In this document: one piece after another, positions 17,021 through 57,858 of the stretch | Layout: the number at the start of each line of letters is the position of its first letter | How positions within the stretch are numbered: the stretch's first letter is position 1 | Translations under genes and position numbers: made by a program | Notes under the pieces: model-generated | What the model saw: only the letters and a program-made list of their open reading frames with translations | Told to the model about the DNA's origin: nothing | Database searches by the model: none | Source of the DNA: Lophium mytilinum | Taxonomy: Eukaryota | Assembly: GCA_010093605.1 (NCBI GenBank) | Contig: MU004186.1 | Coordinates: forward strand, 2,088,616-2,152,615 | DNA: 64,000 nucleotides | Reading direction: 5' to 3'

Positions 17021-18178
17021 CTATATCTGCGCCTTCTCCACCCGCCTCCCTGTCTCATCAAACCAAATCTTCTTCCCACTCCTCAAGCTCTCCTGCAGCG
17101 CACACCCGATCGCAACCGCCTGCACCGCGCCCTTCAGCTTAAACGGCAGCTCGGTGTTCTCCAAGCATGCCGCCGTGAACTCGTTCGCCTCAACCACAAA
17201 CGCATGCTCGAAGCGTCCATAGTAGTTCGGCGGGATCTCGCGCCTAATACCCGTCGACTCGCTCAACTCAACCAGGTTGGTCTGGGGGTTCGCATTCACG
17301 GTGATCTTGCCCTCAGTACCGATGATCTCAGTCATGTCGTGCTGGCCGGCCGCCATCATGCGCGAGCTGTAGAAGTACGCGATCTTGCCGCCCCAGAACT
17401 CGACGACGCCGACGCCGTTGTCGACGTCGCCGTGGGTGCGGAGTTCCGGCTGCACGGCCGTGATGCCGACGGCGTAGCACGACTTGACCACCGAGTCTTG
17501 GCCGAAGAACCATAGCGCCAGATCGATGTCGTGGATGTTGCAGTCGACGAAGATGCCGCCGCTGAACTCGGCGTAGGCGACGAAGAAGCCCGAGGGGTCG
17601 AGCTTGTCGCAGGTCTGGGAGCGGAAGACGGAGGGGCGGCCGATGGTGGAGTCGTTGACGCGCGCGAAGGCGTCGCGGTAGGAGGGGTCGAAGCGGCGGG
17701 AGAAGCCGCAGAGGACTTTGAGGTGGGGTTTTGCGCGGGCGGCGTCGAGTACGGATTGGGACTGGTAACATGTTAGTGAGAGGTACGTTGGAAAGGTTTG
17801 ACCTGAGACTGGATGGTGACGGTATGGGGCGATGATGGGTGAAAAACTCACAATTTCAACACTTGTGCTTAGGGGCTTCTCGCATAGAACGTGCTTGTCC
17901 GCGTTTATGGCCTTGATGGCCTGCTCGGCGTGCACAGTGGTGACGGTCGCAACGACAACGGCCTCGAGGCCTGGGTGTTTGAGCATCTCATCGTAGTCGG
18001 TGTAGATCTTGGTGCCGAAGGGAACCAGGTTCGTCTGTGCCCAGGCGATTTCGCTCTCCTCGGGCGTGAAAGCGGCAACCAGCTCAGCCCGCGGAGTGCG
18101 GTTGAGGAAGTGCAGGGCGTGACGGGCACCCATGCGGCCTAGGCCGGAGACAGCGACTTGGAGCTTGCGAGGACCCAT
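17021..18178 (-). CDS. Gfo/Idh/MocA-family (myo/scyllo/chiro-)inositol dehydrogenase, 2 exons
   Basis: GLGRMG NAD-binding motif, HVLCEKP, CGFSRRFD and GGIFVDCNIHDID (D-x3-H catalytic motif); intron 17762-17851. Confidence 0.9.
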   Translation of the reverse strand: MGPRKLQVAVSGLGRMGARHALHFLNRTPRAELVAAFTPEESEIAWAQTNLVPFGTKIYTDYDEMLKHPGLEAVVVATVTTVHAEQAIKAINADKHVLCEKPLSTSVEIVSFSPIIAPYRHHPVSGQTFPTYLSLTCYQSQSVLDAARAKPHLKVLCGFSRRFDPSYRDAFARVNDSTIGRPSVFRSQTCDKLDPSGFFVAYAEFSGGIFVDCNIHDIDLALWFFGQDSVVKSCYAVGITAVQPELRTHGDVDNGVGVVEFWGGKIAYFYSSRMMAAGQHDMTEIIGTEGKITVNANPQTNLVELSESTGIRREIPPNYYGRFEHAFVVEANEFTAACLENTELPFKLKGAVQAVAIGCALQESLRSGKKIWFDETGRRVEKAQI

Positions 18179-19156: not shown

Positions 19157-20491
19157 CTATAGACGCGCCTTGTCCTCTTCATCAGTCTCAATGACCACCT
19201 TGATCACCAGCTTGCCGTCCACATCTTTTGTGTTGCCCGCCATGTCGAATGCCTGCACGGCAGACTCGAGGCCCTTGTACCTATGTGTGACCAACTTAGA
19301 GAAGTCGGGGTAGTCTGGTCCCTTCTTTGATACGACCTCAATGCCTGTGGGATACGTGTTGGCGTAGCGAAAGACGCCGACGAGGTCAACTTCGCGGAGT
19401 GCGGCAGCTGATATGGGGAGGGTTTGGATTGGCGTGCCCATGCCTATTAACAACACTTTACCGCCAGGGCGAGTAGCCTGTTATATTAGCTTTCGAATTG
19501 AAGGGTGGAGGAAGGTTCACTCACAAATATAGCTGCTTGGAGGCATGACGGCACTCCGGTGCACTCGAACACGGCATCAACCTCCACCGCAGGCTGACCG
19601 CTTGACTTCTTCACCTTGCCAACTTCAGCTGCCGTCTCTTTTGCTATGGCCAGATTCTCCTCGATAGTGCTTCCTCGCTTCATGGAGACTGTGTATCCCT
19701 TATGCGCAAACGAGTTCTTGACGGCAAAGTCCACGCGTCCGGAATCAATGTCAGCTATTATGACAGTGCTCGCGCCAGAAATCTTTGCCATTGCGGCCAC
19801 CAAAAGCCCCACGGCGCCTGCTCCGAAAACCAGAACTGTACTCCCAGTCGGAAGGTTTGCTCTTCTTGTCGCATGAATTGCTACACCCAGTGGTTCTAGA
19901 ATTGCTCCCAGGTCTAGTGAGACATCTTCCGGTAGTCTTTCTAATTAGCTTCCGAGGACTCAGATCATGGCAGAAAGACCTACCTGTGACACCACGCCGC
20001 AGGGTGGTTGATTCTATCTTGCAGTGTACCTTGCGCGTGAGGAAATGCTTTCGCAGAGCTCCTGAAGCTCATAGCTTTGCAAATGTTGTACCTCCCTTCT
20101 CCACACCTGTCACACTCTCCACAAGGCAACCCGACTTCTAGCGCTACCTTATCCCCAACTTTGAAGTCTTTGACTGAAGAACCCACACCAACTACGACAC
20201 CTGCGGATTCGTGGCCCAGGGCCATAGGCTCTCGCACCAAGATGTCGCCATTGCGGTAATGACGGTAGTAATGGAGGTCAGAGCCGCAAAGACCAGTGGC
20301 CCGAATTGCTACCTGGAGCTCATCTGCGTTTGGTGGAAACAGACTTCTACTTTCCTACATAATGTCAGAAAGCTTCACCACGAAATGAGCATGTGACATA
20401 CAATCCTCAAATCTTTCGCACCGTGTAGTACTGAGGCTCTGATCTGACGTGTATTCTGCTGTGTGTCAGGCGACTTGGTTGAGGAAGACAT
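19157..20491 (-). CDS. Zn-dependent medium-chain polyol/sugar-acid dehydrogenase (sorbitol dehydrogenase family; L-idonate 5-dehydrogenase/GluE-like), multi-exon
   Basis: GLCGSDLHYY, LGHESAG, structural Zn motif CGECDRCGEGRYNIC, FGAGAVG, ADID (NAD preference), FECTG, GVFRYAN; ends KARL. The exact substrate is an inference. Confidence 0.88.
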
Positions 20492-20995
20492 GATGGAGGA
20501 TGCTGAGTGTTAATTGAATTGTATGGTAGTAGTACTGGTAGTAGCAGAAAAGTTAGAAAAATTAGCTGTGAACAATCTTCAAACTTTTGAATAACGCGAC
20601 GCACGCGCCGAGGCCACCTGTATGACCGAGAAAGCCATGGATGGCCTCGACGCAAACCCGCCCCGAAGGATGCATGACGGGCTGCGGGGTTTCTTTCCTG
20701 TTGCGAGTGGCAATAGGAAGAATTCTGGTCACTGTCGGCGAATGAAGCGGGACATCAGACACCGACGATCCACTCACGATGCTCTCTCTCCCATTTGCCT
20801 CACCCGCAGCAGCACGGCCCGGCCAGCCCACGGATTAACTGACGCCGTGCCATCCGTTGAAGACCAGCCCAGGTACACGCGCCCCGATGGCTCTGACACC
20901 GCGACTAAAGACATCTCGTGCTCATGGCTTCTGGTCGTCTTCAGCAGATCCAACACCAGATTGACCCGAAGCGTCCCACTACTACCACCAACACC

Positions 20996-21845
20996 ATGAC
21001 TTCCGTACAGCATTTGTTCTCTCTAGAGGGCCAGACGGCTCTCGTCACAGGCGGCACCCGAGGGATAGGTCAAGCAATGACCCTCGCCCTCGCTGAAGCT
21101 GGCGCAGACATCCTCCTCGTCCAGGTACACATTCGCTCCAACAACCTCGAAAACCAACAATACTTACTAAAGCTCCCAGCGCGACACCTCCAACCAATCC
21201 ACCAAAGAAGCCATCGAAGCCCTCGGCCGCCGCGCAACTATATACGCCGCCGACCTCTCTTCTCCCGCCTCCGTCGCCGCCCTCCTCCCATCTATCCTCA
21301 AGAGCGAACCCAATACCCGCATCTCCATCCTCCTCAACTGCGGCGGCATTCAGAAGCGCCATCCCTCCCACCAATTCCCAACCGAAGACTGGGACGCCGT
21401 CATCCAAGTCAATCTCAACGCCGTCTTCACCCTTGCCCGCGATGTGGGCGCACATATGCTTGCCCAACCTGCAGACCTCCCCGGCGGCCGGAGGGGTAGT
21501 ATCATCAACATCGCCTCCCTCCTCTCCTTCCAAGGCGGGCTCACCGTTCCCGCCTATGCCGCTTCAAAAGGTGGTGTTGCACAACTCACAAAAGCGTTGA
21601 GCAATGAGTGGGCTGGGAAGGGCCTCACGGTCAACGGGATTGCACCAGGGTATATTGCGACGGAGATGAATACGGCGCTTATGGAAGACAAAGACCGCGC
21701 TACAAGCATATTGGCGAGGATTCCGGCGGGTAGGTGGGGAAGGCCGGAGGACTTTAAGGGTGCTGTGGTGTTTTTGGCGGCGGCGGCGAGTGCGTATGTG
21801 AGTGGGGAGATTTTGACGGTAGATGGGGGGTGGATGGGACGGTAG
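20996..21845 (+). CDS. SDR of the gluconate 5-dehydrogenase / KduD group (5-keto-D-gluconate reductase, GluF-like), 2 exons
   Basis: [54 protein letters not shown] (YxxxK), [19 protein letters not shown]; intron 21125-21179. Confidence 0.9.
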
Positions 21846-25400: not shown

Positions 25401-28303
25401 TAGAAACCTCCGAGGAGCTGCTTGCGAATAGCTGCTACTACGTCTGACGGTACTTGGGAAGGGGGGTTTGCAAAACGTCGCAATGCCAGCGGCCATGGGG
25501 AGGACCTCCAAGCCGTGCCGTCATTGGGTGTCTGATGGCCCGCGGCGCGGAGAAGACTTCCGCAATCACCTTCCCATGTTGACACCGATCATTCCGTCCG
25601 GCAACTTGCGGTTCTCATGTCGATCGAAGACGATGGAACCAGAACCGTGAGAGACACCTAGTGATACTATCAACATCGCGCGGCAAGTTAATCGAAGGCA
25701 GCGTGAAGGAGGGTCAGTAAAACGTCCAACACTCGAACCTCATGTCCGTCCCTCGTTCTGGCCGACTCCGAGTCATCAAACTTGATGTATACATCCTACT
25801 TTATATCAATCAGCATCACCGGGTATACCTTTCAAAACTCAGTCTGAGATTCCCGAATAGGGCAAGAATTGAGGGGGAGGGGAATCGAAAAATATAATAC
25901 GGAGTTCTACAATGTCACCTTCTCTGGAGGGGATTGAAAAATGCGACCGAGAGCACATCAATATCTCCTTTTCCGGAAAGGCTTGGATAATGCAACCGAG
26001 AACACTACAATCTTCGTTCTTTTCCGGAGGAGCTGGTATACCCAGCCCACTGATACTTCCTGATCGGAACTGATCAGTACGCTCAGGGCATCTTTCAAAT
26101 GATCCTGAACGGCCAGCTCATGGTTCCAGAACCGGAGCAGCGTTCTAGGATTAGATCAAAACATCCTCCACAAGCTCTGCATGTGCTGCGGCGCAGTGTG
26201 GAGAGGAAGATCAAAAACGCCAACATCGCCACCGTATGTTGCAGAGCTTCAACATTCCACTTCGTCAAATAATGGTTGCTTGTTTGTCGCAGCCGTGGCT
26301 AAGCTCACCTTGCTTCCACTCGTATATTCAAATCGAGCATTACAGCCAAGCATACACTTCAAAACGCCAATCTACACCTTTCCATGGGACCGGAGTCTGC
26401 ATCGGGTCAAAACTTGCCTCAAATGAGGCATTTCCAGGCTACCATGGCCTTTTACGGATGCGAGATATCACAACCCGACAATCAGGAGCAGTTGTTCTAG
26501 AAGCAAAACCTATCCACCCGGAACACACACTATCCGTCTGTCTTCCGGAGCCGTGGCTTAAAGTACTGGACTGATACTCGAATATCAAGCAATTCCAGTA
26601 TCTTTGAAAATAGAACACGATGCAGAAGCCATGGACCAGGATTCCATGCTGTGTCGAGAACTCAACTCAAATCAGCACTTACTCCTGATCTATTACTATA
26701 ATCTACTAGTGGAGGAGGTGGATCAACAGTATCCACCCCACTGATCTATGTTCGTTCGTTTTCCGAAGAAGCGGTCTTTTGAAAACGTCGAGATCGGCAG
26801 TTAAATGTGATTGGAGGCACCGACAGCGCCCGGGAGCTTTGCGTAAACTATAACCCCTGAAAGCGCATCCTAGCTGCGGGAGAAGGGGATCAAAATCGAG
26901 GACGTACACTAGCCATGGGAAGGAGTCGTAAAAATGAACGCAACTCCATCTAATGATCGCACCGCTCTGTGGATCGAGCGAGAGGGTTCAAAAGAAGCAA
27001 TCCAGGTTATTGATGAGTTCCGGACCTTGGAAAATAATTCTTCAACACCACCGAATGGATTGGGAGAAGAAGTACTGCAAACGCTGCACACAAACTTGTG
27101 ATGGAGAGCACTGTTGGGTTTGCCCGGCTTCGTGGGCATGTTCCTGCTTGTGGCAAAGCCTCTGACAATTTGTGTACTCGCGTAGTGGTTTCTGGAACGC
27201 ATGAGTCTCAGGACTTGCAAAATTCCACCCGACAGCTTCTAATGGACTGGGATCTGCGGTGGGAAGAAGGACATCGAAACCTAGCTCCGAGAACTGTCAT
27301 GTGGAGAGCGAGTAATATCTCACTTCGTCCAGATCCATGGTTGTCTGCCGCAGTCACCAGCGACGATAACAATCAGGACACACCTGCCCAGATGAGCCGT
27401 AGAAGTTCAAACTCACCGACTCAGTCATCTATGAGCCGGGAGCTGTTGCTGAGAGTACGCGGCTAATCCGCTAGTGAGCATCAGGATATCAAACCACAGC
27501 ATCAAGATGTCGAATGACCTCGCATTGGTGTATCGATATCCTAGATCTGCAAAAGGTGAAGCATGCGGGAACAATGGTTGGGAGTATCCCGGGAATCTCT
27601 TTCAGGAAAGATGGGCTCTATCATCCAGCATGGAGTTTTGGGGGTTGGCGTCTGGCCTATTTCTTCGGAGGTCTGGATGTGTGAAACTCTGGCACGTGGA
27701 TGCATTGGCTAAGCGCATCCTGCTCGGCTCGTTCTAGAAACATGATCGTTGAGAACAATGAATGGAGTTGGGAGGTTTGTGCGGGTTTAAACTAGAACTA
27801 TTTATATGGAAATTTATTCATCAGATAGAAGCACGTTAGCAAGACTGTTTGACGTTCGAATTGAGATTGACGAAAGGGAAGTGATTGTTTAGGAACATGC
27901 TCTCTAATAGTGCTAACTTTTACGTGTCAAAACAACGTTACCAATCCTAATAGGTTTTGGACATGTATTGACTTAAAGGTCCAACTCTCTAAACTCCGCA
28001 CCCCATGCTTCTGACGTTTAGCGAATTCGGAATCGTAGACAGTATCGTCTACCTTTGCGTACTCCAGACTTGATTTACGCAGGTAGGTTCCTTACAACGT
28101 CGGCTTTATAATAGTTAGAAAGATGACTGCGAGGGAATATTTCACGCGTCTTGCTCCCAAATAGCATATCCGCGTCTTGCACGTGATGTAGAGAAGTCAA
28201 ATACAACTTTTGGCGCTTCTATAACTATTCATATTCTAGAGCCTGGATGCGGGTATCCTACAATCTATCATCAACTTCCGTCTCAATGCAACACCCCCAG
28301 CAC

Positions 28304-29330
28304 CTACTGCTTATCCGGGAAGCCCATGTTCACGCCGAATGCTGGATATACGAAACGCGTGAAGCCCTTCGCTTTCGATATGCCCTCTAGCTTCTCCATA
28401 TCGTCGGCGTCGAGGGTAGTGAGTTTGCGGTTCGATTCGATACGGGCGGGTGTTACTGATTTGGCGAGGACGGAGGAGCCGCGGGCAACTACATTCAATT
28501 AGTATGATTCTATGAAATGAGCACAAGGATTGAAACTTACCGTGGTAACTTAATAGCACCGTTCCCGGCTCCACCGAGTGCTTCTTCGCGACTTCAATCA
28601 CGACCTCCTCTTTCATCAATGGGCTGCCTGTGCTTCCTAACGGACTATACGCAGTGATGTGGATTCCCTTGCCCTTGCAAAAGTCGACGATTTCTTGCTG
28701 GGGCAGATACGGGTGGTTCTCAATCTGGTTAACCGCGGGCGTGATGGTGGTGGTTGGCAGCAGTTCCTCGAGGAACTTGACAGAGTAATTGGCCACGCCA
28801 ATGGCCTTCGCTTTGCCGGTTTCCGGGAGCTTCTCCATAGACTTCCACGTATCGATGTGGGTGGTGGACTTGTCGAGGTCACGCGATCCATCGGGGAACT
28901 TGGGGAAGAGGGGGTGGTTTCCTGGAGAAGTGTTAGATGTTGCGTCAATTGGGCACGCGATGTGGCGATTGCACTCACCCTTCGGGTTCATGGGTACCGG
29001 CCAATGCACCAGGAAGAGGTCCACGTAGTCCAGTCCCAGTGCTTTCAGGCTCTTGCCTAATCCCTCTTCTACGCGCGTGTGGAATGTGCACCATAGTTTC
29101 GTGGTTATGAACAGCTCTTCCCGCTTCACGACCTTCTTCGCCAGCACCTCCTTCAGCGCCTCTCCCACCTCATCCTCGTTCTGGTAGCAGAAAGCGCAGT
29201 CAATGTGCCTGTAGCCAGACTCAATCGCATGAACCACAGCAGCCTTGACCTGGCCAGGCTCCGATTGCCACGTCCCGAGCCCAAGGGCTGGGATGGTGGC
29301 GCCGGTGTTGAGGGGTAGCGGGGTATTCAT
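28304..29330 (-). CDS. NADPH aldo-keto reductase, GAR1-like hexuronate (D-glucuronate/D-galacturonate) reductase, 3 exons
   Basis: LNTGATIPALGLGTWQS, IDCAFCYQNE, TKLW, LVHWP, NQIENHPYLPQ, AYSPLGSTGSPL, RGSSVLAKSVTPARI and C-terminus RFVYPAFGVNMGFPDK; closely resembles my recollection of Trichoderma reesei GAR1. Confidence 0.88.
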
Positions 29331-30550
29331 AGTGGGTGTTGGATGGAGGATACGATCGGGAGTGCGCGCGAGCATGAACTTGGAGAGGGTGGGATTCATA
29401 GCGGGCGAGGGGCTGTGGTTGATATAGTCCGGGGAAAATCGCGGAGTCCCGCGAAATGTTACTTCATGTTTGCATGCCGTGTGGGTAGAGAGGGCGCGCT
29501 GCGGGTCGCCCCACGTATCGGGAGAAGTGTCGGCCCTGGACGCCGGTGAATGGGCGGCCGCTGTTCTCTCGCCGTTCTCTCGGGCCGGGCAGTCGTGCTG
29601 TGCTTAGAGGGGACTGTGACGCTGTTGTGCATTATTTCTGATACATTCACTCTAGACGCTGCCGTTTGGCTGGAGGGGAGTCGCACGGTTATTTTGCACG
29701 TGCTCTACTCCTAATTCGGATTGAAAACGGCGACGTGACCGGGCAATCATTGTTGCGAGAGGGGGCAAGTCTTCCGCCTGCTTCGCCTCTCCGCATCTTC
29801 TTCTCTCCATTATTTCATCATTCATCGCGGGGCACGAGATGCTACCCCTCCTTCCCCAAGCGGAATCTATATCGAAACATTCTCGAAGGCCGGCAGTCCC
29901 TGCATCGCAGCCACATGATCGCCACGCTCCAACGGCCCTCAGTCGCCTCCGCGCAGTCGGTGTTGCTCCAATCGCCCCAAAGAAATGCCGGGCACGCAGG
30001 TTGCGGCGAGAATTGACATTTTCGGCGGGCGCATGGCAAGTCGGATGTAGCCCTGCGGGAACAGTGGAGCCCCGGGAGCCACAACGGCGTCGCAAATCCA
30101 ACCATCCCTCCACCTGACGTAGACCAGTGCACGATATTTCCAATTGTGGACGCATCTCGTCCACGACCTGTTCGCCAGCCCCGCTGAGGGGCCGTCATGC
30201 CTGTCTGAAGACGGCGAACTGCAGAGATTGCGTTGCATCTGGCATGCATTCTGATATCGACCCGCACGAACATCGCCTGACGAGTGGAGTCTAGATTTGA
30301 TTCCAGATGCTCGTGGTAGGTAGGGGAGAATTGCGCTGTTGAGGGGCTGTTTCTTTCCATTTTTTCGTTGCTACGGAGCTGAACCGTGTGTCGCTGCTGA
30401 AGTGTCAAGTACACGCGAAGCTGCTTCTATTCAAATACTCAGCGTCGAGGTAGCTTTTAATCTCATCATCACTTTACTTCATCTCTTGCATCCTCAAGCC
30501 TGTCTTCTTTGATACCCATTTGCATACCTCAATCCCTCACTACCACCAAA

Positions 30551-31522
30551 ATGGCCCCCGCTCTCCTCGAAACCCCGAACATCAACGAGACCTTCAACGA
30601 CCGCGATGGCCTCGCTCTCGAAGCAACCTCCGACGCCATCGACGAGGTCAACGTCCTCAAGGCCGCTCTCAAAGTGAAGAAAGGCACCGCCACCCAAGAA
30701 GAGAAAGACATCTACGAAGCCTCCCAATTCGACGCCGAGAAGGACAAAACGCAGTTCCGACAATACGAGGAAGCCTGCGACCGCGTCAAGAACTTCTACC
30801 GCGAGCAGCACGAGAAGCAAACAGTCGCCTACAACCTCAAAGCACGCAACACCTTCCTCTCCTTCACGCGCGCCGAGATGACCATCTGGGAAGCCATGGA
30901 GAAGCTGAACACCCTCATCGACGAATCCGACCCGGACACCTCGCTGTCCCAGATCGAGCACCTCCTGCAGTCCGCCGAGGCGATCCGCCGCGACGGCAAG
31001 CCGCGCTGGATGCAGCTTACCGGCCTGATCCACGACCTAGGCAAGCTGCTCTTCTTCTTCGGTGCCGAGGGCCAGTGGGACGTCGTCGGCGACACGTTCC
31101 CCGTCGGCTGCGCCTTCGACCGCAAGATCATCTACCCAGACACCTTCGCGGGGAACTCGGACTCCACGGACCCTATCTACAGCACGAAAGAGGGCATCTA
31201 CACCCCGGGCTGCGGCATGGATAACGTCATGCTCAGCTGGGGCCACGACGAGTATCTCTACCACATCGCCAAGGCGCAGAGCACGATGCCTGATGAGGCG
31301 CTGGCGATGATAAGGTATCACTCGTTCTACCCGTGGCACTCGCAGGACGCGTATAGGTGGATGATGAATGAGAAGGATGAGAAGATGTTGGAGGCCGTGA
31401 GGGCGTTTAATCCGTATGATCTGTACTCGAAGAGCGATGAGGTGCCGAAGGCGGAGGAGCTGAAGCCGTATTATATGGAGCTTATTAAGGAGTTCTGGGG
31501 CGAGGGAAAGGTGAAGTGGTGA
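30551..31522 (+). CDS. MIOX: myo-Inositol oxygenase (intronless)
   Basis: FRQYE, FYREQHEKQT, DESDPD, QIEHLLQSAEAIR, LIHDLGK, QWDVVGDTFPVGC, SWGHDEY, IRYHSFYPWH and YDLYSK are the di-iron MIOX signatures. Confidence 0.97.
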   Translation: MAPALLETPNINETFNDRDGLALEATSDAIDEVNVLKAALKVKKGTATQEEKDIYEASQFDAEKDKTQFRQYEEACDRVKNFYREQHEKQTVAYNLKARNTFLSFTRAEMTIWEAMEKLNTLIDESDPDTSLSQIEHLLQSAEAIRRDGKPRWMQLTGLIHDLGKLLFFFGAEGQWDVVGDTFPVGCAFDRKIIYPDTFAGNSDSTDPIYSTKEGIYTPGCGMDNVMLSWGHDEYLYHIAKAQSTMPDEALAMIRYHSFYPWHSQDAYRWMMNEKDEKMLEAVRAFNPYDLYSKSDEVPKAEELKPYYMELIKEFWGEGKVKW

Positions 31523-33102: not shown

Positions 33103-34745
33103 TCATAGTCCAACCTTCTCATCATCGACGGCCATCCTCTCGCGTCTCCATACCTTCAAAGGCATAGAATCCGGGCCACAGTTCATGCTCTCCTTCCACT
33201 CTGGCGTCCACGACTGGTCGGGGAGCGCAAACTCGTATCGGTGAAGCACACTGCTCAGCAACACAGTCTGCTCTAGGTAGCTGATGTTGCGGCCAATGCA
33301 GCCGCGAGCGCCCGCGCTGAACGCGATAAAGTACACTTGCAGGTCCTTGCTATCCGGCTGCAGCCAGCGCTCGGGGATGAACTTTTCTGGCTCAGGGAAG
33401 ATGGTCGGGTCGCGGTGGGCGACGTATGCAGACATAGAGACGGACGTCTCACCGGGGACGAAGGTGCCTTCGATGGAGTGGCCTCCAGGCGGTGTGCGGC
33501 GGGGCAGACCGAAGGTAGTTGGGGGGGTAATACGCATGCTCTCATCGAGACATGCGCGGAGGTATGGCAAGTGGCGCACCTTGTCATAGGGCGCAACCAC
33601 TTCGTCGTCATCGAGCACCGAGTCGATCTCGGCGCGAAGTTTCGCTAGGACAGTTGGGGTCTTGCACAGCCAGTACATGACATTGTTCATGGCGATGGCG
33701 GTGGTGTCGGAGCCGGCGTTCATCATGATGGACACCTCGGCAACGATTTCGCCCCACTCGAGGTTGTTGGGATGTCCGTTCTTGTCTTCCATCAGCGCTT
33801 GGAAGAAGTCGTCGAGCTTCTCGCCGGCTTGGTAGCGGCGCAGACGTTGCATGGCGCGATGCCAGACGATGTCGTTCCAGCCCTCGTTAAGTTTCCAGAG
33901 ATTCTTGAAGCAGGTGGGCAGTACGCGAGTGATCTTCTCATTGAAGTTGTACCAGTCGTAGGCCCAGACGATCTGAGACTGAGCGCGAGCGGTACCATGC
34001 AGGCAACTGCGGTAGGAGGGGATAGTGTGGAGTTCGCCGTTCATTTTCTCACCGGTGACGAGGTCTGAGCCTTGGTCTAGGAAACCAAGACGCTCGCTCA
34101 GTCCAATATCGGCGATGGCATCGAGAGTGAAGAAGTTGGACCAGGCGCGGTAGTCGAAGGTCAGGTCTTTTGGGTCTGGACGAGGGGCTTCTTTGGTAAG
34201 GGGTGCCGTGCAGTGCTTGTCACAGCCGGTGATGAAGCGAGCAGTTTTGTCGCTGACTTTGTGTTCCCAGCCCTCAAGGTTCTTAAGGGCGTAGGCGGAA
34301 GAGAGGACTTTCCGCTTGCGCGCGTGTTCGGGCTTGTCGAGCACATCTGCAAGATGGAAATGTGTGCCAGCGAGGGCTGAGTAAAAGAGATCCTTGGTGC
34401 AAGGGGAACCGTGGCCGTAGATATCCTGGAGGCTGTGTCAGTGATCGTTTCTCCGTATCATTTATAAGAGTTGCTCACCTTGATAGCTTGTGGACGCCCG
34501 TAGCTCAACGAATTTGGTCCAATGCGAATGACTGGGTGCGTCTTGTGCATTTCATAGAGAGTTTTCGACCGGAACCCCTTTCTGGCTTCCCACATGAAGC
34601 CCAGGTTTGTGATACCCGCAATGGGGTTGATGGCGGGGTACTTCCGGAAACCCTTAGGATCGCGGAAGTAGTTGGAAACGGGCCGGATGATGAAGTAGGT
34701 GACGAAGAAGAAGGCGGCACTCGCTGCCACAATGATGGAATACAT
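33103..34745 (-). CDS. Cytochrome P450 (about 529 aa, CYP53-clan-like, often annotated 'benzoate 4-monooxygenase'), 2 exons
   Basis: N-terminal membrane anchor, IRIGPN, I-helix AGSDTT, K-helix ESMR, PERW, heme motif FSAGARGCIG; intron 34426-34478. Confidence 0.95.
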
Positions 34746-35704
34746 CTTGAAAGACTTTCAGGGGGTGCGATCAGGTAGATAGGACAACGTCCTTTCGATA
34801 TAACGTTGGGTTGTACCCCTTGCCTCGGCAATCAGAGATTTTTTATGGATGTAGCCGTAGAGGCAAACACAGAAGTTTTAAGATCAAAGAGTAGAGGGAT
34901 GAATGGAGTAGAGAGTACGAAATGTGATGCTGATCAAAGGACTTCGAACGTGGTGTTCTCCTATATACCTTGATATCAGACAAGAGCCCAAAGAAGAAAC
35001 ATGGACAACGGAGGCACGCGGAGGGTGCCCAACACTGCCCCTCCTGCCCCACCACCCTCTTCCGAGGGACTCAAGACCTTTCTCTCCAGAAGGAGAACCT
35101 TACTCGCAGCAACCGCACCCGCAATCCTAGCCATCGAGATTCTGGGGAACCCGATGGCGTTGAGCTTTGGGCAGCAGTCCATGCACAGGGCTCGATTCAA
35201 GCTTTGCAGGGATGGCGGCGAGAATAGCTGCGTCGAGTCAGTCGTATCAGGCAATTCGGTCATGAAAGTTGCTGCTTTGAGAGGGCGAGGAAGGTTGAAG
35301 AGAGGTGCTGAGGCTGGGCAGGTCGGCCCGGGTGGCGTCCGATGCGGAAGTTTTAGACGACCAACCCCGGAGTTTTCTTTACCCCACAATTCTCCTTCAC
35401 CAGGTTCGATCCGCCCGGGTCTTAGGGTACCAACGTGGCCCTGCCATGGGGTCAGGCGACGCCGAACCGATATGCATGGTGGGGTGGTCTGGACAGGGTC
35501 TTCTAAATGCGGGATTGCCTCTTTTGACCGTCAACACCATTTCTGCCGATCTCAGTGGAGAATTGCTGTCATTTGCCTTCTCCGTTTCAACAGGCCTGAT
35601 TTCCTCTTGCTATATAGGGAATCCACAACGTTCCTGTTCATTACCTATGCCCTGATTCCTGCGTTCTCTTCCGTCCTCATTGTCTTTTTTGATACCCTAC
35701 AGTC

Positions 35705-37921
35705 ATGTCTGCCCCTCTATTTTCAAGCAATGGCTTGCCTGAGTCTCTGCTAGAGCTCACTCAGCTGGCAAAGCCTTCCTCCTACGCAGATATCGCTGCC
35801 TTGGGTCTAGTTGCTCTTGGTTCAGCAGGCTATCTATTGAGAGGAATCGCGTGGGACAAACCAGATCCGTATAACCACTTGTTTTACGAAAGACCACAAG
35901 AGAAGGACTCTGCTAGCAGAAATGCCCAAAAGGAGACTAGGAACATAGCCCAGAAGCTTGAGGAATCTGTAAGCATCTCTCCTGAACAGTTTTCTCTTCT
36001 CAGACACTGATAAGTGTAGGAAAAATCCCTCGTCATTTTCTGGGGATCGCAATCTGGTACTGCCGAAGCCATCGCGAACCGACTCGCAAGAGAATGCCAT
36101 CTCCGATTTGGCTTGAACTGCATGGCCGCAGATCTCTCCGACTACGATGCTGAAACCATCGCCCTCATTCCTCAGACGAAGTTTGCAATCTTCATCATGT
36201 CAACGTTCGGCGAGGGCGATCCGAGTGACAACTCCGCTGGCTTGTGGGAGTGGGTGTTGAAGTCCACCGACATCAAACTCGAAAACCTCCGGTACATGGC
36301 TTTCGGTCTTGGGAACAGCAACTACAAATACTACAACCGCGTTATCGACGTTGTGACAGAAGCGCTGGACAAGTTTGGCGCCCAGAAGTTGATGCCAGTA
36401 GGCCGAGCGGACGATGCCACAGGCGCCACAGAGGAAGACTTTATGGGATGGAGAGACGACCTCTTCACCGTTTTCCGAAGGGATTTGCACTTCGAGGAAC
36501 ACGAAATCGCATACGAGCCTACACTTTCTGTCGAAGAGGACGAGTCTCTCGATATCATCGACCTGCATCACGGTGAACCAATGCATCCACGAGAGAATGC
36601 CAAATCAGCAGCGAGCTGCTCGCCCATCAAAGCACTGAATATCCAATCTTCCCGCGAACTCTTCAACTCCTCGTCCCGCAATTGCATCCATATGGAGCTC
36701 GACATCAACGACCACTCAGAACTGCACTACAAGACAGGTGACCATCTCGCCGTCTGGCCAACAAACCCGGACAACGAAGTGGAACGACTTCTCCGCGTAT
36801 TGGGTCTCTCTGAGCGCCGTGATGTCCCCGTCAGTGTCAAGTCTCTGGACGAAACCGTCAAAGTCAAAGTCCCTACGCCAACGACCCTCTCCGCCCTCTT
36901 CCGCTACTACCTCGAGATCTGCGCACCCATCTCCCGTGATACCATGGCCAGCCTCGCACAATTCGCCCCTAACCCTGCAATAAAGACCTACCTCAGTACC
37001 CTCGCCACCTCAAAGGATGCCTATGCGGACTTTTTGACCCGCAACTACCTTACTCTCGGCCGTCTCCTCGAAGCCGCTCTCGCCTCCGACTCCTCAACCC
37101 CGTCCACCTGGCCCACTCTCCCCCTCTCCTGGCTCCTCGAAACTCTTCCCCACACCCAACCCCGCTACTACTCCATCTCCTCCTCCTCCGCCATCTCCCC
37201 CCGGACACCCGCAATCACCGCCCTTGTCTCCAGCACGCCCCTCCCCTCCGACCCCTCGCAATCCATCAACGGCGTCACAAGCAACTACCTCCTCGCCCTC
37301 TCCCAATCCCACAGCTCCTCCTCCTCCATCACCCAACCCACCTCATCCATCTACACCCTCACAAACCCCGCCCTCGCCCTCTCCGGCGACTCCCCAAGCG
37401 GCCACAAACTGCACGCCCACATCCGCAAATCGAAATTCAAGCTCCCCCTCTCCTCCCTCACGCCTCTCATCATGGTCGCTGCCGGAACCGGCCTCGCGCC
37501 CTTCCGCGCCTTCATCTCCGAGCGCGCGCGCCTCGCGTCCGTCGGCAAGGAGATCGGGCCCATGGTTCTCTTCTTCGGGTGCCGCGACCCGGCCGAAGAC
37601 TACATCTACCAGGACGAGCTGGAGGGATATGTGCGGCAGCTGGAGGGGAAGCTGAGGGTCGTGACGGCGTTTTCGAGAGTCGGAGGGGAGAAGGTGTATG
37701 TGCAGGACCGCGTGCAGCAGCATGAGGAGGAGGTGGTGAGGTTGTTGACGGAGGAGGCAGGGAATTTCTATGTTTGTGGGCGCGCGAGTATGGCGAGGGA
37801 GGTTGGGAAGGTGGTGCAGGGCGCGGTGGGGAGGAGGAAGGGGTGGGGGGAGGCGGAGGTGAAGCAATGGAGTGAGGGGGTGAAGAGGAGGGGAAAATGG
37901 GGGGAGGATGTTTGGGGTTAG
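35705..37921 (+). CDS. NADPH-cytochrome P450 reductase (accessory CPR-type paralogue), 2 exons
   Basis: Membrane anchor, FWGSQSGTAE, STFGEGDPSDN, FGLGNSNY, PRYYSISSS, AAGTGLAPFR, FFGCR, KVYVQDR, YVCG, EDVWG; intron 35969-36019. Confidence 0.95.
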
Positions 37922-39394: not shown

Positions 39395-41110
39395 CTAAAC
39401 ATTCACGGCCATCTTGGTGTCCGGGTCCACATGAGAGTGCATGCCCTGGGACTTGACCTCCTTCTGGATCTCGCGCGCCTTGCGCACACAGGCGCGGAGA
39501 GAGGGCTGAGCAAACACCTCGCGGATGTCCTCGAGGGTCATGCCCTTGACCTCAGGGTAGCACCACCAGACCGCCACCCAGCCGAGGATGCAGATAGCGG
39601 CGTAGAAGCCGAAGGCGCCGGAGGGAGTGGTGTTCTCCATCTGGGAGAGGAAGGTGGAGGCGACGATGACGTTGGAGCCCCAGCAGGTCATGGTCAACAT
39701 CATGGTGCCCATGGCGCGGACTTCCATAGGGAAGAACTCGGAGCTCAACCAGGCGGTGTTACCCATACCAGAAGAGTAGAATCCAACGTAGCAGACCATG
39801 GAGACGAGGACGATAATGGCGGGGGCGCCGACTTTGGTGCCTGCCTTTAGAGATAGATCGTGGTTGACTGGGATCCAGTGGAAAGCAACAGCTGCTACAA
39901 CAAGGAAGAAACCCATGAATTGCATGGTGCAGAGCAAAATCCGGCGGCGCCCAATTCGGTCGACAAGCATCAGGTTGACCCAGGTGAAAAAGAAGTTCGT
40001 TCCGGCGATAATAGTACCCACTGCGACGGGATTTGAGAAGCCTACGAGTGCGAAGAGGGTCGAGGAATAGTACATGAGCGAGTTGAAGCCACCAAGTTGA
40101 GAGATGGCCATGAGGCCGCAAGCGCAGACGAGAGCACGGAAATTGCCAGGGATGACGTAAAGCTGCTTGAGAACCCACCACTGGCTCTTGCCGGCGGTCA
40201 GGTCCTTGGACTCCTGGACGTGAATGGTGATGTGCTGGACCTTCTGGTCGACCTGGAGGTCGGTGGCGTGAGGGTAGATGGCGCGGATGACAACGCGGGC
40301 TTGGTCGGCCTTGCCATGGTAGATGAGCTGGCGAGGAGATTCAGGGCAGAATGGGAGAAGGCAGCAGAGAATGATGGCAGGGATAGCACCACCACCGACC
40401 ATGTAGCGCCAGCCACCTGTAATTTGTCAGTGATGCTCAGTGGTAAAGGGGGCCAGAAATGTCAACGTACCAACAACTTTTGCGAATCCAGCACCAATGC
40501 CGTAGGAAACCAATTGGCCACCAGTGATAGACATGTTGTCCAAGCCAATCATGCGTCCGCGATACTTGGCAGGGGAGACTTCAGCGATGTACCTGCAAAA
40601 CAGTTAGCTTGCGTTTTTCGGCAAAGGAAGCGGGAAGGCGCACATTGGCACGATCATAGCTGCTGATCCAACACCAAAGCCGACAACAAGACGTCCGACA
40701 GTCATCTGAGCGAGTCCAAAAGATGCAGCTTGAAGAATGGCCCCGAGGATGAAGAGAACGCATCCGACGTAGATAGCAGGCTTGCGGCCAAACCTGTCAG
40801 CCGTGGCACCGGCGAAGATGGCTCCGAAGAAAGCAGCACCAGAAGTGACGGAGGTGATCAGTTCTTTTTCGTTCGAGGAGAGAGTGTGACCGAGATCACG
40901 ACCGATGTAGACGAGGACGGCGGAGATGATTCCAGTGTCGTATCCGAAGAGCATACCGCCAATGGCAGCGGTGATGGAAACTAGCCATGAATATCTCCCG
41001 GTCTCGGTCTGCTCAATGGTGTCGAGGGAGTCGAGAGTCTGCCCTTCGCTGGCGACGTGCTCGACATGGTTGCTGCCGAGCTTCTCATCGACGAACTCAG
41101 AGTGGCCCAT
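39395..41110 (-). CDS. MFS sugar porter, myo-inositol transporter (ITR)-like, 3 exons
   Basis: GGMLFGYDTGIIS, ADRFGRK, YIAEVSPAKYRG, GWRYM, PESPR, SQLGGFNSLMYYS, VDRIGRR, SEFFPMEVR, YPEVKGMTLE; introns 40593-40643 and 40417-40470. Confidence 0.92.
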
Positions 41111-42497
41111 GATGAGGGAATAGGAGGTAGAAGACGGAGACGAAGACGGGGAAGACGAAGAGAGCCTAGAGATGGATGAGATGCTCTTGAAGAGTGTGGA
41201 GCTGATGCTGCTGATGATGGGCAAGAGCATGGCGATCAGGCCTGAGTTATATAGAAGTCAGAGTGTTGAAACATGCCACCCACACCCCAGATGGCCCACA
41301 CCAAAATGGCCCACATACCCCGGAGCGGGAATAGACTAGGTTTGCGGAGAAGATGGGTCTTGGAAACGGCAAGCAACTTGTTCCGCCCTGGGTCCAAGTG
41401 CCGTCAGAGGCTGGCCGAGTGGCCGAGGGGTTAGACTTCATCCCATCTGCACGCCACCATTGCAGACCACGCGACAAGGGAGATCCAGGCCATGCAGGTG
41501 CCGCGATCTGCCGCGTGGGAGTTGGTGAAGAGTCGTGGGAACCGACGTGAGGCCGACGCTTGGCCAACGCTTGGGGAGGCGATAGTATCGCCGGGGGTTG
41601 GTCTGGCTGCCGCATCCGCGCTCCACACCCTCCCAGCACATCGTGACGTCCAGAATGCGGGGACCCCAGACGACGCCTTGCATCCGGCCAGGCGGTCCAT
41701 CGTGGCTGGACGGCGCCGCCAGCACCAGGCGAGGCAGCACGGCAGACAAACTCGACGGCGCTCGGCATCCAGCACCTCAGACGTGAGTCGGATCGATGGC
41801 AAGAGGTAAGTCGGCCCGAGCAGTGAAGACGAGCGGGCTCGGACGACGGCTCGCAGCTCGGGCGGCGTCTGACTTGCCAGCGGGCGGAGAGGAGCCGGCC
41901 CCAGTAGATGCCCAGTCGCAAGGCGGCAATGATGGCAGGGAGTTCCTTGAGCAAGAAGTGGCAGGTAACGAGTCTTTGATCATACTCCGACCATTCTAAT
42001 ACTCTCGATAGATAGGATGATATATGTACATACATACACTGGCCTATCACCGCGTGAGGGCCCCTGATATGGTATCAACAACGTGAAAACGACGGTTTTG
42101 GCAAACCCGATAGCTCTCTGGGGTGCCTCCGACGAAATCCAGCTAGACTGCCACTTGATGGCCATGGTCACCGAAGTCTGGTACTGGGTACGGCAGTGGT
42201 GGCCTGGTTCCCCTCGTCCTCCACACCTCCCCGTAATGTTTGCGCCGCAAGTGGTCCAGCGGCTCGGCTAGCGTGAGCCATCTCCGCACGAATCGGCAGG
42301 CCCCAACCCCACACAGGCCAACCCCGCAAAATACTGCCCGCGTCAGCTGATTTAGGAAACTTCCTGTGCGGTCTGAAAGAGGATATCTTCAGCGGCCCTC
42401 GCCCTCTGTTGCTCCCCGCTGCCCTTGCTTCCCTCCAATTCCTTCCAGAACGTCGCTAACTCCCGGAACCACCTGCTCCATGCCGCGCGACCGCGCC

Positions 42498-45202
42498 ATG
42501 TCCAACTCGACTCCACGAACAAGAACCGGGTGCCAGGTAAGTCTACCGTGATGCTCAGGAGATCTGGTCCATTTCCTAATCTGGCATATCTTCAGAGTTG
42601 TCGTGTCAGGTATGCAGTCTGCGAACTGAAGTCTGAATCATTGAGTATTCGCTTATGATGCCGCCCCTGCTTTAGACACCTCAAATGTAAGCTTTTTCAG
42701 ACTCCCGTGATTGGCTGTGCTGATGAAGATGCTCTCCAGGTGATGAACAGCGGCCTTCGTGCTCTAGATGTCTTAAAAGCGGCATTGATTGTGTGCGGGG
42801 CTACAATATCAGATTTCGACACGGAGCCAATCCCAGGTGAGCTTTCTCACGCTTCAAGATTGATATCACCCAATATCAGCGTTCCACCACTTGGCAAGCA
42901 CGTGACTAGGGGACGTGCAATACTGCTCTTGCCCTGCCCTGTCTTTTCGTTTATTGCCATTATCAGATTGCTAACATCGACAAGCGTGGCTAACCAAAAG
43001 GGCTCTGGTCTCACCAAGTGCGACTACGACTTCGCCGAGAATCAGCCCTGGTGCCGGACAACACACACCCTCAGCTTCGTGGACGAGACTCAGGAACTGG
43101 TCAACATCTACGACCGCGACTCTGAGCCAGAGAATACGAACAATGCCGCCACTCCCGCCGAGTGGAATGGCAGCGTCCGCTCGGCCCCTGACTCTTTCAT
43201 GGTTCCCACTCCGTCAGCCACTTCTCACCCCACACCTCTCAAGACCAACAGCATAGACACCCCCAACACGTTCGATATTCCCTCACCCGCCAAAAGACGG
43301 AAGCTAGACTCGCCTTTCAACTTCTCCGATGTCTTCCATAACTCTCCAGACAGCAACTCTCGCCTGGTATCCTCTCCTGTAGCTAGTCATCACCGCCTCC
43401 GGGATTCGTTCTCTACTACTTCCGGCCACGAGCCCTTTCGGGATATACTAAACGGGGCCGACAGCTTCGAGCCGCTGGAACCAACAGATTCCCACTGCAG
43501 CGACTTTGCCACGGGCTACTCGGCTGTCTCAGAGACTCTGGCCAGGATCTACCTGGAGACACCGGCCTGGCCGCTGCAGGACCGACACGAGGCCCACTTA
43601 ATGCGGTACTTCATCGACAATCTGGCCACCTCGTTTGATTTGTGTGATCCCGATCGCCACTTTGCTCTAGTGGTCCCACAGAGGGCCGCTGTGTGTCCGA
43701 CGCTCCTGAATGCCATCTTTGCGGCGTCTGCAAGGCATCTGAGCCGAGTCTGCGAGTTCGATCCGTATGTGGCTGACAGATACCACCAAGAATGTCTGAA
43801 GCATCTCATTCCGATGCTGAACGATACTGCGGCTATCATGGACGAGAATCTACTCGCCGCTACTGTGATATTACGCTTTTTGGAGGAAGTTGAAGGTAGG
43901 GCGTCCTTTCCGTTCTCCATTCTCCAGTTTCCAAGTCTCTCCATCATACGGCCCTCTCTCTTCCTCGGAGGGGTGATTGTCCGCCAGTAGAGGAGTGGAG
44001 GTCTCGTGATGTGATCACCTCTGCGCTACCTTTGATGGTATCTCCTAGCCCTGGTTCATCGAGTTAGACTTTGCTCTGTGCATCGAGAGAAGATCCTACC
44101 CTCATTCTCCACGCGATCTACTGCACACTCCCTGAATCGGGAGCCGATATTCACTCCCATAGTCAGGTGGACAGGCAGCCCATGGCATTGGGCAGCAAGC
44201 ACATCAACAGTCTCGACCTCTCACTAACATCCCACAGTCCCGGTCTCAGGCACCGACACGCAGTCCCACCTAATCGGGACCCACATCTTCATCAGCGCAC
44301 AAGAGTCCTCGACCGTACTCGGCGGCCTGCGCCAAGCCGCCTTCTGGGTCGGTCTACGGCAGGAGGTGTACATGGCCTTTGTTAATCAGCGCTCCATCCT
44401 GCCCGCCCTGTCCCACTGTAACATCGACCGCTCCTTCGAGCCCGCCTCCGACTGCGTGTGGGCCAACCGCATTGTCGTCTTCTGCGCGGATGTGCTGCGG
44501 TACTGCTTCGGCGACACGGAGAACAGCACTAATAGAGACAGTGTGGCGACCTATAATCAGCTCGTCGAGTATAGCCAGGAATGGGCGGCGTACAAGCCGG
44601 ACTCGTTCCGGCCGATCTTTTATCGCGAGGCCAAGAGGGTCGCGGGGCCGGCGGGGGCTGATGCGTCGGGGTTTTTCCCGGAGGTGTGGTTGTTGAGTGA
44701 TAGTGTGGTGACTGGGCTGCAGCATTATCACCTTGCGAGGATACTGTTGACGGCGCATAACCCCAAGGTGCCGAGGTTGGGGCCGGCGCAGAGGGCGGCG
44801 TTGAGGATTATGGATGTTAGTTTCAGGCTGGCCCTGTTGAGAGTCACCCGTTGAAGTGAAGCATTACTGACAACGAGATAGGAGGAGATTAAAACCGATG
44901 TCCGTACGCTTTGTGGAATGGCAGAGTCGAACTCGAAGACTCCGCCGAACTATGTGTAAGTATTTCCTTGAGAGCTCGCCCTCCTTCTCTTGGGCCCCCT
45001 CTCCTGCCTGGCACCATCTGTCGCTTTCCTAATGCCTTGCAGGACCGCATCAATGGCCATAGCCATGGCCGGCGACCGCTTCACCGAACGCGCCGAGCAA
45101 GAAGCCCTGCTAGACATCATCCTGAAAACGGAGAAGATCCATGCCTGGCCGACCAGCACGGCCCAGACGCACTTGAAAGAGGCGTGGGGATGGGCGGAGT
45201 GA
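42498..45202 (+). CDS. Zn(II)2Cys6 transcription factor with fungal-specific C-terminal domain, 8 exons including two micro-exons
   Basis: Exons 42498-42536, 42596-42609, 42676-42686, 42740-42836, 42985-43895, 44238-44815, 44882-44955 and 45043-45202 assemble RTRTGCQSCRVRHLKCDEQRPSCSRCLKSGIDC, followed by EAHLMRYF...FDLCD...LLNAIFAASARHL...AAFWVGLRQEV. Confidence 0.88.
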
Positions 45203-56386: not shown

Positions 56387-57858
56387 TTAATTACTATAGT
56401 AGGTCCCATTAGGATACGAGCATTGCCAGTATCCTGCACAATACGGCAACTCCTCCGTCTCTTCCCCCGTCTCCGGCCCCGCGTCATTCAACAACAACGC
56501 CGCAACCCCATGCGCTGGCAGCTCCAACGTCAAATTTCGCAGCGCCGTTCCCGTGTGCTGATGGCTCCACATGTCATACACCGAGTATACCCGCCCGGCC
56601 CTGATATCCCAGCTCTCCGTCAGGTTGAAAAACATTGTCGCCGGCTGGTCCTCAGTATTCAGGATCATGAAGACGGTGCCGTAGCTGCTCGGCCCGCTCC
56701 AGTACTGCGCAGGGTGGGTTGAGTTGGAGACGTAGTCCGGCCCTATACCCCAGCGGAATGGGGAGATACTCTGGCCAACATGGGGATCTTGGTTGATCTT
56801 AATCAAGTCTCTATTTCCTAATATCTCGATCGTCTGATCAGTGGCGTTGGTGAGGTCGGTGCCGATGATCAAGGGCGACTTGAGGAGCGCCCACGCCGTG
56901 AAGTGCGATTTCGCTTCTTCGTAGGTCAGGTTGCCGATGGGATTGCCTTGGCCCGTGTTGCCGACTTCGAGCATGTCGAGGTCGTTGTGGCCGTAGAAGT
57001 CTGAGGCCCAGTACTGGAAGCTCGTGAGGTCGATGATGGCGGCGAGGGCGTCCCACCAGGGCTTGATGTCGCCGTTTATGCGCCAGGATTGGCCGACCGT
57101 CTTGCCCCAGATCCAGGGTTGTTGCCAGCCCTGTAGTGGTAGTGTGCTTAGCTGGTGATTATAGAGGCGGAGTTGGGGGATTTGCATACCCATTCGCAGA
57201 GACCAAGCCAGAATGGGGTGCTATGTGTCTTGGCCGCGCGGTCCGCAATCGCGTCAGCCATACGCTGGTACCGACCCTTCACGTTCTGCTGCGTGACGTT
57301 GTCGAATGGTATGTAGCAGTTATCGTATTTGACGTAGTCAAAGCCCCATTCGGCCCATGTTGCTAGATCCTGTGCTTCGTGGCCATAAGCACCAGGGTAC
57401 CCAGCACATGTTTGATATCCGGCATCCGAATATGCAGCTCCGTTGATCCCGAGTTTGTTCAATTGCTTGTTGAACGCCTTGATGCCATCCGGGAACTTGT
57501 CAGGGTCTTTGGAGTTTTAGTCAGGGCTGTGAAAGTTCAAGCATTAGACGATACCTTCTACGAGTTTCCCGTCCTTGCTTCGGTTCCTAAGTGTGAAGCA
57601 GTCGTCGAGAATGATATGCTTATATCCTGCGTCTACGAGACCATGCTTTTTCATCGCTTGAGCCTGGGCGAGGACTTTATCGGCGTCGTAGTCACAAGCG
57701 AAGGCATTCCATGCTGTGGAGCTGTTAGACTCTTTTCTTTCTGACTTTAGGTAGGCTTCTGACATACTATCATAACCTAGAAAAGGAAGCTTGCCAACGC
57801 CATTATTGAGCGCCGCCACTGAGACTGTGAACGCGGCAGCGAAAAGGATCGAGTACAT
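56387..57858 (-). CDS. Secreted glycoside hydrolase family 27 alpha-galactosidase, multi-exon
   Basis: Signal peptide MYSILFAAAFTVSVAA-LNNG, LDDC, YSDAGYQTCAGYPG, DYVKYDNC, SWRINGDI, NDLDMLEVG, HFTAWALLKSPL, INQD. Confidence 0.93.

Follow-up and report, generated by a model that had tools for sequence, protein, structure and literature searches.

Clusters in which a cytochrome P450 of the CYP630 family accompanies a second NADPH-cytochrome P450 reductase (CPR), termed CPR2, have been reported in ~30% of 204 Pezizomycotina genomes, including those of Aspergillus and Fusarium, and in most Dothideomycetes the two genes are divergent (Novak et al., 2015; PMC4368105). This report concerns such a pair in Lophium mytilinum (Mytilinidiales, Dothideomycetes), at positions 33103-37921 of a 64,000-nucleotide stretch of contig MU004186.1 (assembly GCA_010093605.1) that was analyzed as a whole and is referred to here as the window. 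The pair lies beside a gene for myo-inositol oxygenase (MIOX).

In Grosmannia clavigera, CYP630B18 with CPR2 is described as an oleic acid omega-hydroxylase in vitro. Combined with either CPR, the enzyme turned over oleic acid and none of eight other fatty acids, in an assay that covered fatty acids only, assigned the product by mass spectrometry alone, and gave no kcat or Km (Novak et al., 2015; PMC4368105). Induction of the P450 and CPR2 reached 326- and 418-fold on triglyceride, 14- and 29-fold on oleic acid, and only 3.9-fold on monoterpenes, and a role in specialized metabolism was proposed for CPR2 (PMC4368105). The G. clavigera transporter, P450, and CPR are also induced by a methanol extract of pine phloem (Hesse-Orce, 2010). 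In Ophiostoma piceae, OPP_02426, named a benzoate 4-monooxygenase P450, is the homolog of CMQ_5365, i.e., CYP630B18, and belongs to “cluster 8” (OPP_02424-02428), which comprises a myo-inositol transporter, an ARCA-like regulator, the P450, a CPR, and a “NAD binding Rossmann fold” protein, and whose genes rise on pine sawdust (Haridas, 2013; PMC3680317). The presence of a myo-inositol transporter beside the O. piceae P450 has therefore been in print since 2013; apart from this remark on gene proximity, no link of CYP630 to inositol or pinitol catabolism was found in the papers searched. Deletion of Fusarium graminearum CYP630A1 (Fg00012) lowered virulence on wheat heads.

Pinitol and other methyl-inositols rank with the most plentiful soluble carbohydrates in conifers and legumes. 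Their breakdown by fungi matters in a bark-beetle/fungus invasion (Sci. Adv., 2022; PMC9788770). According to the same study, Leptographium procerum can use pinitol only with MIOX, the inositol transporter iolT1, and a step that removes the methyl group; pinitol induces iolG, and the MIOX mutant accumulates D-chiro-, scyllo-, and myo-inositol, which places demethylation before MIOX. MIOX is cited there as active on D-chiro-inositol. Pisatin demethylases of the CYP57 type were proposed as candidates for this step, but single knock-outs of three pisatin-demethylase-like P450s had no phenotype, so the pinitol demethylase was left unidentified; the study does not bring CYP630 into connection with pinitol. 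A chemical precedent comes from bacteria, whose P450s demethylate 6-O-methyl-D-galactose (Robb et al., 2018; PMC6292453): hydroxylation of the methyl ether sets the sugar free and yields formaldehyde. These enzymes are soluble and employ other redox partners, and the kinship with CYP630 shown here is that of the P450 superfamily only.

The window pair is the L. mytilinum representative of the CYP630-CPR2 module that is conserved in Pezizomycotina, and its arrangement is new. The module joins a microsomal P450 to a dedicated NADPH reductase, the two genes being divergently transcribed from a short spacer rich in CreA-type sites. An earlier note on this DNA, made from its letters alone, had described a divergent P450 and full-length CPR separated by a ~960-bp spacer, and the gene models agree with it. 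The P450 gene (33103..34745, minus strand) begins with an ATG at 34745 and contains two exons (34745-34479 and 34425-33103) around a 53-nucleotide intron (34478-34426), with its stop codon at 33103-33105. It encodes a membrane-anchored class II protein of 529 amino acids, which carries an N-terminal anchor and matches the Pfam p450 model with an E-value of 1.3e-61 (209 bits). A protein of Mytilinidion resinicola (P0006) is 94% identical to it, of equal length, and has an equal exon junction. The CPR gene (35705..37921, plus strand) begins with an ATG at 35705, is interrupted by a 51-nucleotide intron (35969-36019), and encodes a full-length, CPR2-type reductase of 721 amino acids. This protein consists of a hydrophobic N-terminal exon serving as membrane anchor, followed by FMN, FAD, and NADPH domains (Flavodoxin_1, FAD_binding_1, and NAD_binding_1 were all found with Pfam) and a C-terminal DVWG. 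Its exon 2 is 100% identical to a 721-amino-acid L. mytilinum “putative NADPH-cytochrome P450 reductase” (P0126). Contigs of a single public run, X1, labeled RNA by guess, join exactly over the predicted introns of the P450, the CPR, and three neighboring genes (an aldo-keto reductase, a porter, and a regulator), all with GT..AG ends; spliced copies therefore exist and the gene models hold. Within CPR exon 2, a Ser/Thr-rich low-complexity insertion is seen at ~37150-37450 (residues ~380-480), in the FAD-binding/connecting region.

Under the rules of P450 nomenclature, membership in a family calls for at least 40% identity to its named members. The best G. clavigera homolog (P0119) is 65% identical to the window P450 (280/429), which places the latter in CYP630; P0119 is itself probably CYP630B18 (EFX05103), judging by species, identity, and synteny. 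The O. piceae “benzoate 4-monooxygenase cytochrome P450” is 66% identical. The statement in the earlier note that accessory CPR genes accompany CYP630-type P450s was correct, as the described CYP630-CPR2 cluster attests, while its view of CYP630 as an orphan family had been overtaken by the report of oleic acid omega-hydroxylation in 2015 (PMC4368105). Among 20 aligned P450 orthologs, which are 62-80% identical to the first sequence of the alignment, the AGSDTT, ESMR (ExxR), PERW, and FSAGARGCIG motifs are all kept, and putative substrate-recognition stretches contain invariant polar residues (His, Asp, Glu, Asn); the latter are suggestive only. One such residue, Asn325 in P0006 numbering (window ~33770), directly precedes AGSDTT, is invariant in 20/20 orthologs, and aligns with Phe304 of CYP3A4.

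The pairing of the two genes is general. A metagenome scan with P450 exon 2 yielded 80 loci, the flanks of which were searched to 10 kb, and in 29 of them the P450 is at least 53% identical to that of the window. In 19 of these, the sequence extends 1160 bp or more upstream from where the second coding exon matches, which makes them informative for the CPR; in the other 10 it extends <800 bp. An upstream CPR on the opposite strand was present in 19/19 informative loci, although it was seen by its first exon only in L024 and is far more divergent (36-50%) in L027, so the pairing is not a matter of chance. The P450-CPR spacers of 13 of these loci are estimated at 638-912 bp, and adjacent P450 and CPR locus tags are found in three named genomes (LTR85_001294/95, M1827_005156/55, and Fc.00g039480/490).

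The spacer of the window (34746..35704) measures 959 bp from ATG to ATG; the 9-mer GTGGGGTAA occurs in it once, and SYGGRG sites of the CreA type nine times. Across 14 P450-CPR spacers, 81 SYGGRG sites were counted, whereas 200 shuffles gave 38.4 on average and 59 at most. Within the window, the counts are 12, 9, and 19 for the three divergent promoters, as compared to 3 and 1 for the two 3′ intergenic regions. This richness of the divergent promoters fits catabolic genes under carbon catabolite repression. By comparison, CCTCGG, which we take to be the core of a FarA-type fatty acid regulator site, is unenriched in the 14 spacers (4 vs. 4.8 shuffled). The 9-mer GTGGGGTAA, which includes a CreA-type core, recurs in 8/14 spacers (shuffle maximum, 2), namely that of the window and those of L002, L003, L004, L010, L013, L016, and L017, and L015 has the 8-mer TGGGGTAA only. 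Its distance from the P450 ATG is 290-360 bp in the metagenome loci; the window copy has the opposite orientation, with 319 bp between it and the CPR ATG. Contigs of run X1 cover most of the spacer. If these are contiguous, they imply long 5′ leaders, with the P450 contig reaching ~35251 and the CPR contig starting at ~35398, and leave ~150 bp of the spacer uncovered.

The pair is flanked by two further divergent pairs. On the P450 side, MIOX (30548..31522, plus strand) is a single-exon gene for a protein of 324 amino acids, identified with Pfam at E = 8.1e-126 (419 bits), and lies 1.6 kb past the P450 3′ end. Divergent from it is an aldo-keto reductase (AKR) gene of Pfam assignment (27900..29653, minus strand), with introns at 28489-28540 and 28921-28977 joined in run X1. 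On the CPR side, 1.5 kb past the CPR 3′ end, lies a three-exon gene for a sugar-porter family MFS transporter (~39395..41110, minus strand; Pfam Sugar_tr, TIGR00879), with introns near 40415-40468 and 40591-40641 that are likewise joined. Divergent from the porter is a gene with several introns for an ARCA-like fungal-specific transcription factor (42242..44500, plus strand, with a provisional coding start; Pfam Fungal_trans_2; three X1 joins). The position that the earlier note gave the pair, between MIOX and a porter, is accordingly correct. Farther off, 17021..18178 on the minus strand encodes, through an in-frame intron, a Gfo/Idh/MocA-family protein resembling the inositol dehydrogenase IolG (Pfam GFO_IDH_MocA plus C-terminal domains). 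Among solved structures it comes closest to inositol dehydrogenases (4n54 and 4mkx, both at ~E 1.5e-49, and 3cea), and it contains CEKPL, with the EKP lysine, and DCNIH, a DxxxH sequence; EKP and DxxxH are motifs of the family.

Two of these neighbors travel with the module. A porter homolog (45-79% identity) accompanies the pair in 6/7 distinct loci whose sequence continues for 5 kb or more beyond it (L008/L023, L012, L013/L014, L016, L017/L018, and L026), the sole miss being the divergent L027. IolG-like homologs (54-77% identity) lie right beside the P450 in L007, L008/L023, L011, and L026, i.e., in 4/9 distinct loci for which 2 kb or more of downstream sequence is available. Homologs of the regulator were found in six distinct metagenome loci. 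CYP630-CPR2 is hence part of a conserved neighborhood that includes a sugar porter, a Zn-cluster-type regulator, and often an IolG-like dehydrogenase. The earlier note proposed an O-methyl-inositol demethylase, an idea that a complete lack of linkage between orthologous pairs and inositol genes would have undone; the recurrent porter homolog and IolG-like gene provide such linkage, and the proposal survives this check. In contrast to the wide recurrence of these two genes, the adjacency of MIOX, which was also part of the inositol context proposed there, was found in Mytilinidiales only. MIOX and the P450 of M. resinicola are both recorded with a contig of 1,618,902 bp, and in Lepidopterella palustris, also of the Mytilinidiales, MIOX, P450, and CPR are all on a record described as “3 contigs, longest 24347”, which would put the three genes within 24 kb.

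Comparison with the described clusters brings out the same elements. The G. clavigera cluster shares with the window the P450 family, the divergent second CPR, and the nearby sugar transporter and ARCA-like regulator, although the gene order differs (P450, CPR, porter, and regulator in the window vs. porter, regulator, P450, and CPR in G. clavigera) and only in the window is the P450 abutted by MIOX and the AKR (PMC4368105). The composition of O. piceae cluster 8 matches that of locus L008, the fifth gene of which is IolG-like; unlike the window, cluster 8 has no MIOX reported (PMC3680317).

These observations lead us to a reading that we favor tentatively, and to which we would give somewhat less than an even chance: the neighborhood may form an island of genes for the catabolism of O-methylated cyclitols, D-pinitol among them, with the P450-CPR2 pair as the demethylase. 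The porter would bring the cyclitol into the cell, where the P450, with electrons from CPR2, would hydroxylate the methyl group; the resulting hemiacetal would collapse to formaldehyde and the free inositol. The IolG-like enzyme would interconvert chiro-, scyllo-, and myo-inositol via an inosose. MIOX would then open the ring to give D-glucuronate, and the AKR, if it acts as a glucuronate reductase, would reduce this to L-gulonate, while the published omega-hydroxylation of oleate would count as a side or second activity. The sequence of inositol transporter, demethylation, and MIOX is that of L. procerum (PMC9788770), the chemistry is that of the bacterial O-demethylases (PMC6292453), and the D-glucuronate pathway of Aspergillus niger (Kuivanen et al., 2017; PMC5306355) lies downstream of the MIOX product, as would the AKR found here beside MIOX. 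Support for the demethylase reading comes from the two recurrent inositol-type neighbors together with the enzymatic step that the literature leaves unfilled. Induction of the O. piceae cluster by pine sawdust and of the G. clavigera genes by pine phloem extract also speaks for it, as does the enrichment of CreA-type but not FarA-type sites in the spacers. Relatives of L. mytilinum share with L. procerum an association with pine.

A broader version of this proposal is possible, and is put forward with greater reserve. CYP630-CPR2 might be the missing fungal demethylase of the pinitol type and the core of a widespread Pezizomycotina island for cyclitol ethers that feeds MIOX and comprises the porter, the regulator, the P450, its private reductase, and an epimerizing IolG-like dehydrogenase, with oleate as a side activity. 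No earlier eukaryotic P450 would then have had the demethylation of a carbohydrate-like carbon source as its dedicated task. Such a function would give the CYP630-CPR2 cluster a coherent role, would explain its second, co-regulated CPR by the demand of a high-flux catabolic P450, and would provide an enzyme for making chiro-inositol from pinitol. Should the demethylase reading fail, the oleate assignment stands and the neighbors need another explanation.

Several findings weigh against the demethylase. Microsomal P450s rarely act on very polar substrates. Oleic acid hydroxylation is the only activity shown for any CYP630 member, and strong induction of the cluster is seen in cyclitol-free media, with triglyceride or oleic acid (PMC4368105). 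MIOX and the AKR are present in 0/80 metagenome loci within the 10-kb flanks, and the locus tags of CPR and MIOX are thousands apart in Elasticomyces elasticus and Neofusicoccum ribis, so that the MIOX adjacency represents one junction specific to the Mytilinidiales lineage. The IolG-like gene is absent from the sequenced flanks of L012, L013, L017/L018, L020/L021, and L027 (5/9), and its window copy is 15 kb away from the P450. The top NCBIfam model for this protein, TIGR04380 (iolG), scores 235.9 bits, below the cut-off of 355, for an open reading frame that was read through its in-frame intron; because the score is under the equivalog cut-off, the protein is called IolG-like. Pfam, NCBIfam, and the generic Sugar_tr clusters of the Atlas assign the porter to the sugar-porter family only, and its inositol label comes from the annotation of the O. 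piceae ortholog and from an N-terminal motif. No formaldehyde-detoxification gene was recognized near the pair. The AKR-MIOX and P450-CPR promoters have 20 9-mers in common (shuffle mean, 9.8; maximum, 21), but none occurs in each of the window's three divergent promoters, and these share no specific k-mer beyond chance, which leaves a shared regulon without support. Finally, in L013/L014, L016, and L018 a member of the fatty acid hydroxylase superfamily is encoded between porter and CPR.

The last of these points belongs to the best supported alternative, in which the pair is a physiological oleic acid omega-hydroxylase with a dedicated reductase that clears toxic free fatty acid, and the neighbors are historical or regulatory passengers. 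We regard this as doubtful on balance and nonetheless as a serious contender. The selective turnover of oleic acid by CYP630B18 with either CPR favors it, as do the strong induction on triglyceride and oleic acid, which O. piceae parallels, and the membrane-anchored, class II nature of the P450. The assay behind it, however, tested fatty acids only and left the product to mass spectrometry and the kinetics without kcat or Km. Triglyceride induces the cluster ~23-fold more than the proposed substrate, which may mean that carbon limitation releases a repressed “scouting” cluster, and the FarA-type element is unenriched in the spacers. An oleate function also leaves unexplained why CYP630-CPR2 travels with the porter and the inositol-dehydrogenase-like gene, whose induction accompanies that of the pair in O. 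piceae and G. clavigera, and no fatty alcohol or aldehyde oxidase or acyl-CoA ligase was found in the flanks (99/172 open reading frames of at least 140 amino acids scanned). The docking model for oleate names Arg224 as the substrate holder in a figure legend and Arg256 in the text (PMC4368105). Arg256, Asp137, Asp462, and Arg465 of that model are absent at those positions of P0119, and only Arg224 matches; the Arg224 column is variable among the 20 orthologs, while an Arg two residues further on is invariant (20/20). The genes of the fatty acid hydroxylase superfamily, of the membrane di-iron oxygenase type (PF04116), are located at 6007-6675 of L013, 5588-6664 of L016, and 5617-6687 of L018, and could encode a second CPR- or b5-dependent oxygenase of the cluster.

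It is unlikely, though conceivable, that the pair oxidizes some other polar plant substrate taken up by the porter, such as 4-O-methyl-glucuronate, another methylated sugar, or a glycoside aglycone, with the product entering the uronate route via the AKR. In the established pathway AKR and MIOX both touch D-glucuronate, and a divergent pair of dehydrogenase genes at 19.5-21.8 kb of the window resembles later uronate steps; induction by pine phloem extract and sawdust would also fit, as would the DHDPS-family genes and second sugar porter near the cluster in L013 and L026. Against this, the recurrent dehydrogenase is nearest to inositol dehydrogenases and not to uronate enzymes, the ortholog of the porter is annotated as an inositol transporter in the literature, and no glucuronidase or xylan-related gene was seen. 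The arrangement in question, in which a gene of the DHDPS (aldolase/dehydratase) family and a second, unrelated sugar porter are found a few kb off, spans 16359-19491 of L013 and 14065-17046 of L026 and resembles sugar-acid catabolic pairs.

General xenobiotic detoxification, with CPR2 as a stress-inducible auxiliary reductase and the P450 acting broadly on lipophilic host chemicals, is the least probable alternative and a distinctly improbable one: induction by pine phloem extract, the lowered virulence of the F. graminearum CYP630A1 deletion strain, and the specialized-metabolism role proposed for CPR2 would all suit it, but monoterpenes induce only 3.9-fold, and the very high conservation of the P450, down to invariant residues where it putatively recognizes its substrate, speaks for a single defined substrate.

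Other features of the window are of less direct bearing on the pair. In the regulator gene, 42537-42739 includes an apparent micro-exon of 25 nucleotides, seen as 25 letters between the sides of a 203-nucleotide skip in the X1 contig. A regular-expression search of the window for Zn2Cys6 found no complete cluster, which is probably due to its being split across the first exons of the regulator, including this micro-exon.

The divergent dehydrogenase pair consists of a Zn-dependent dehydrogenase gene (19489-19944, minus strand) and an SDR gene (20909-21842, plus strand). The top match of the SDR is KduD/gluconate 5-dehydrogenase-like, and the Zn-dependent dehydrogenase fragment weakly matches L-idonate 5-dehydrogenase and IolM models. 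By their arrangement the two genes recall the divergent gluD-gluE pair of A. niger (PMC5306355), and the region from 17 to 44 kb may form a single cyclitol-to-gluconate island. An alpha-galactosidase (Melibiase) fragment is found at 56390-57220 on the minus strand, 12 kb past the regulator; its position may be a coincidence, or may reflect the ability of such enzymes to free cyclitols from galactosyl cyclitols.

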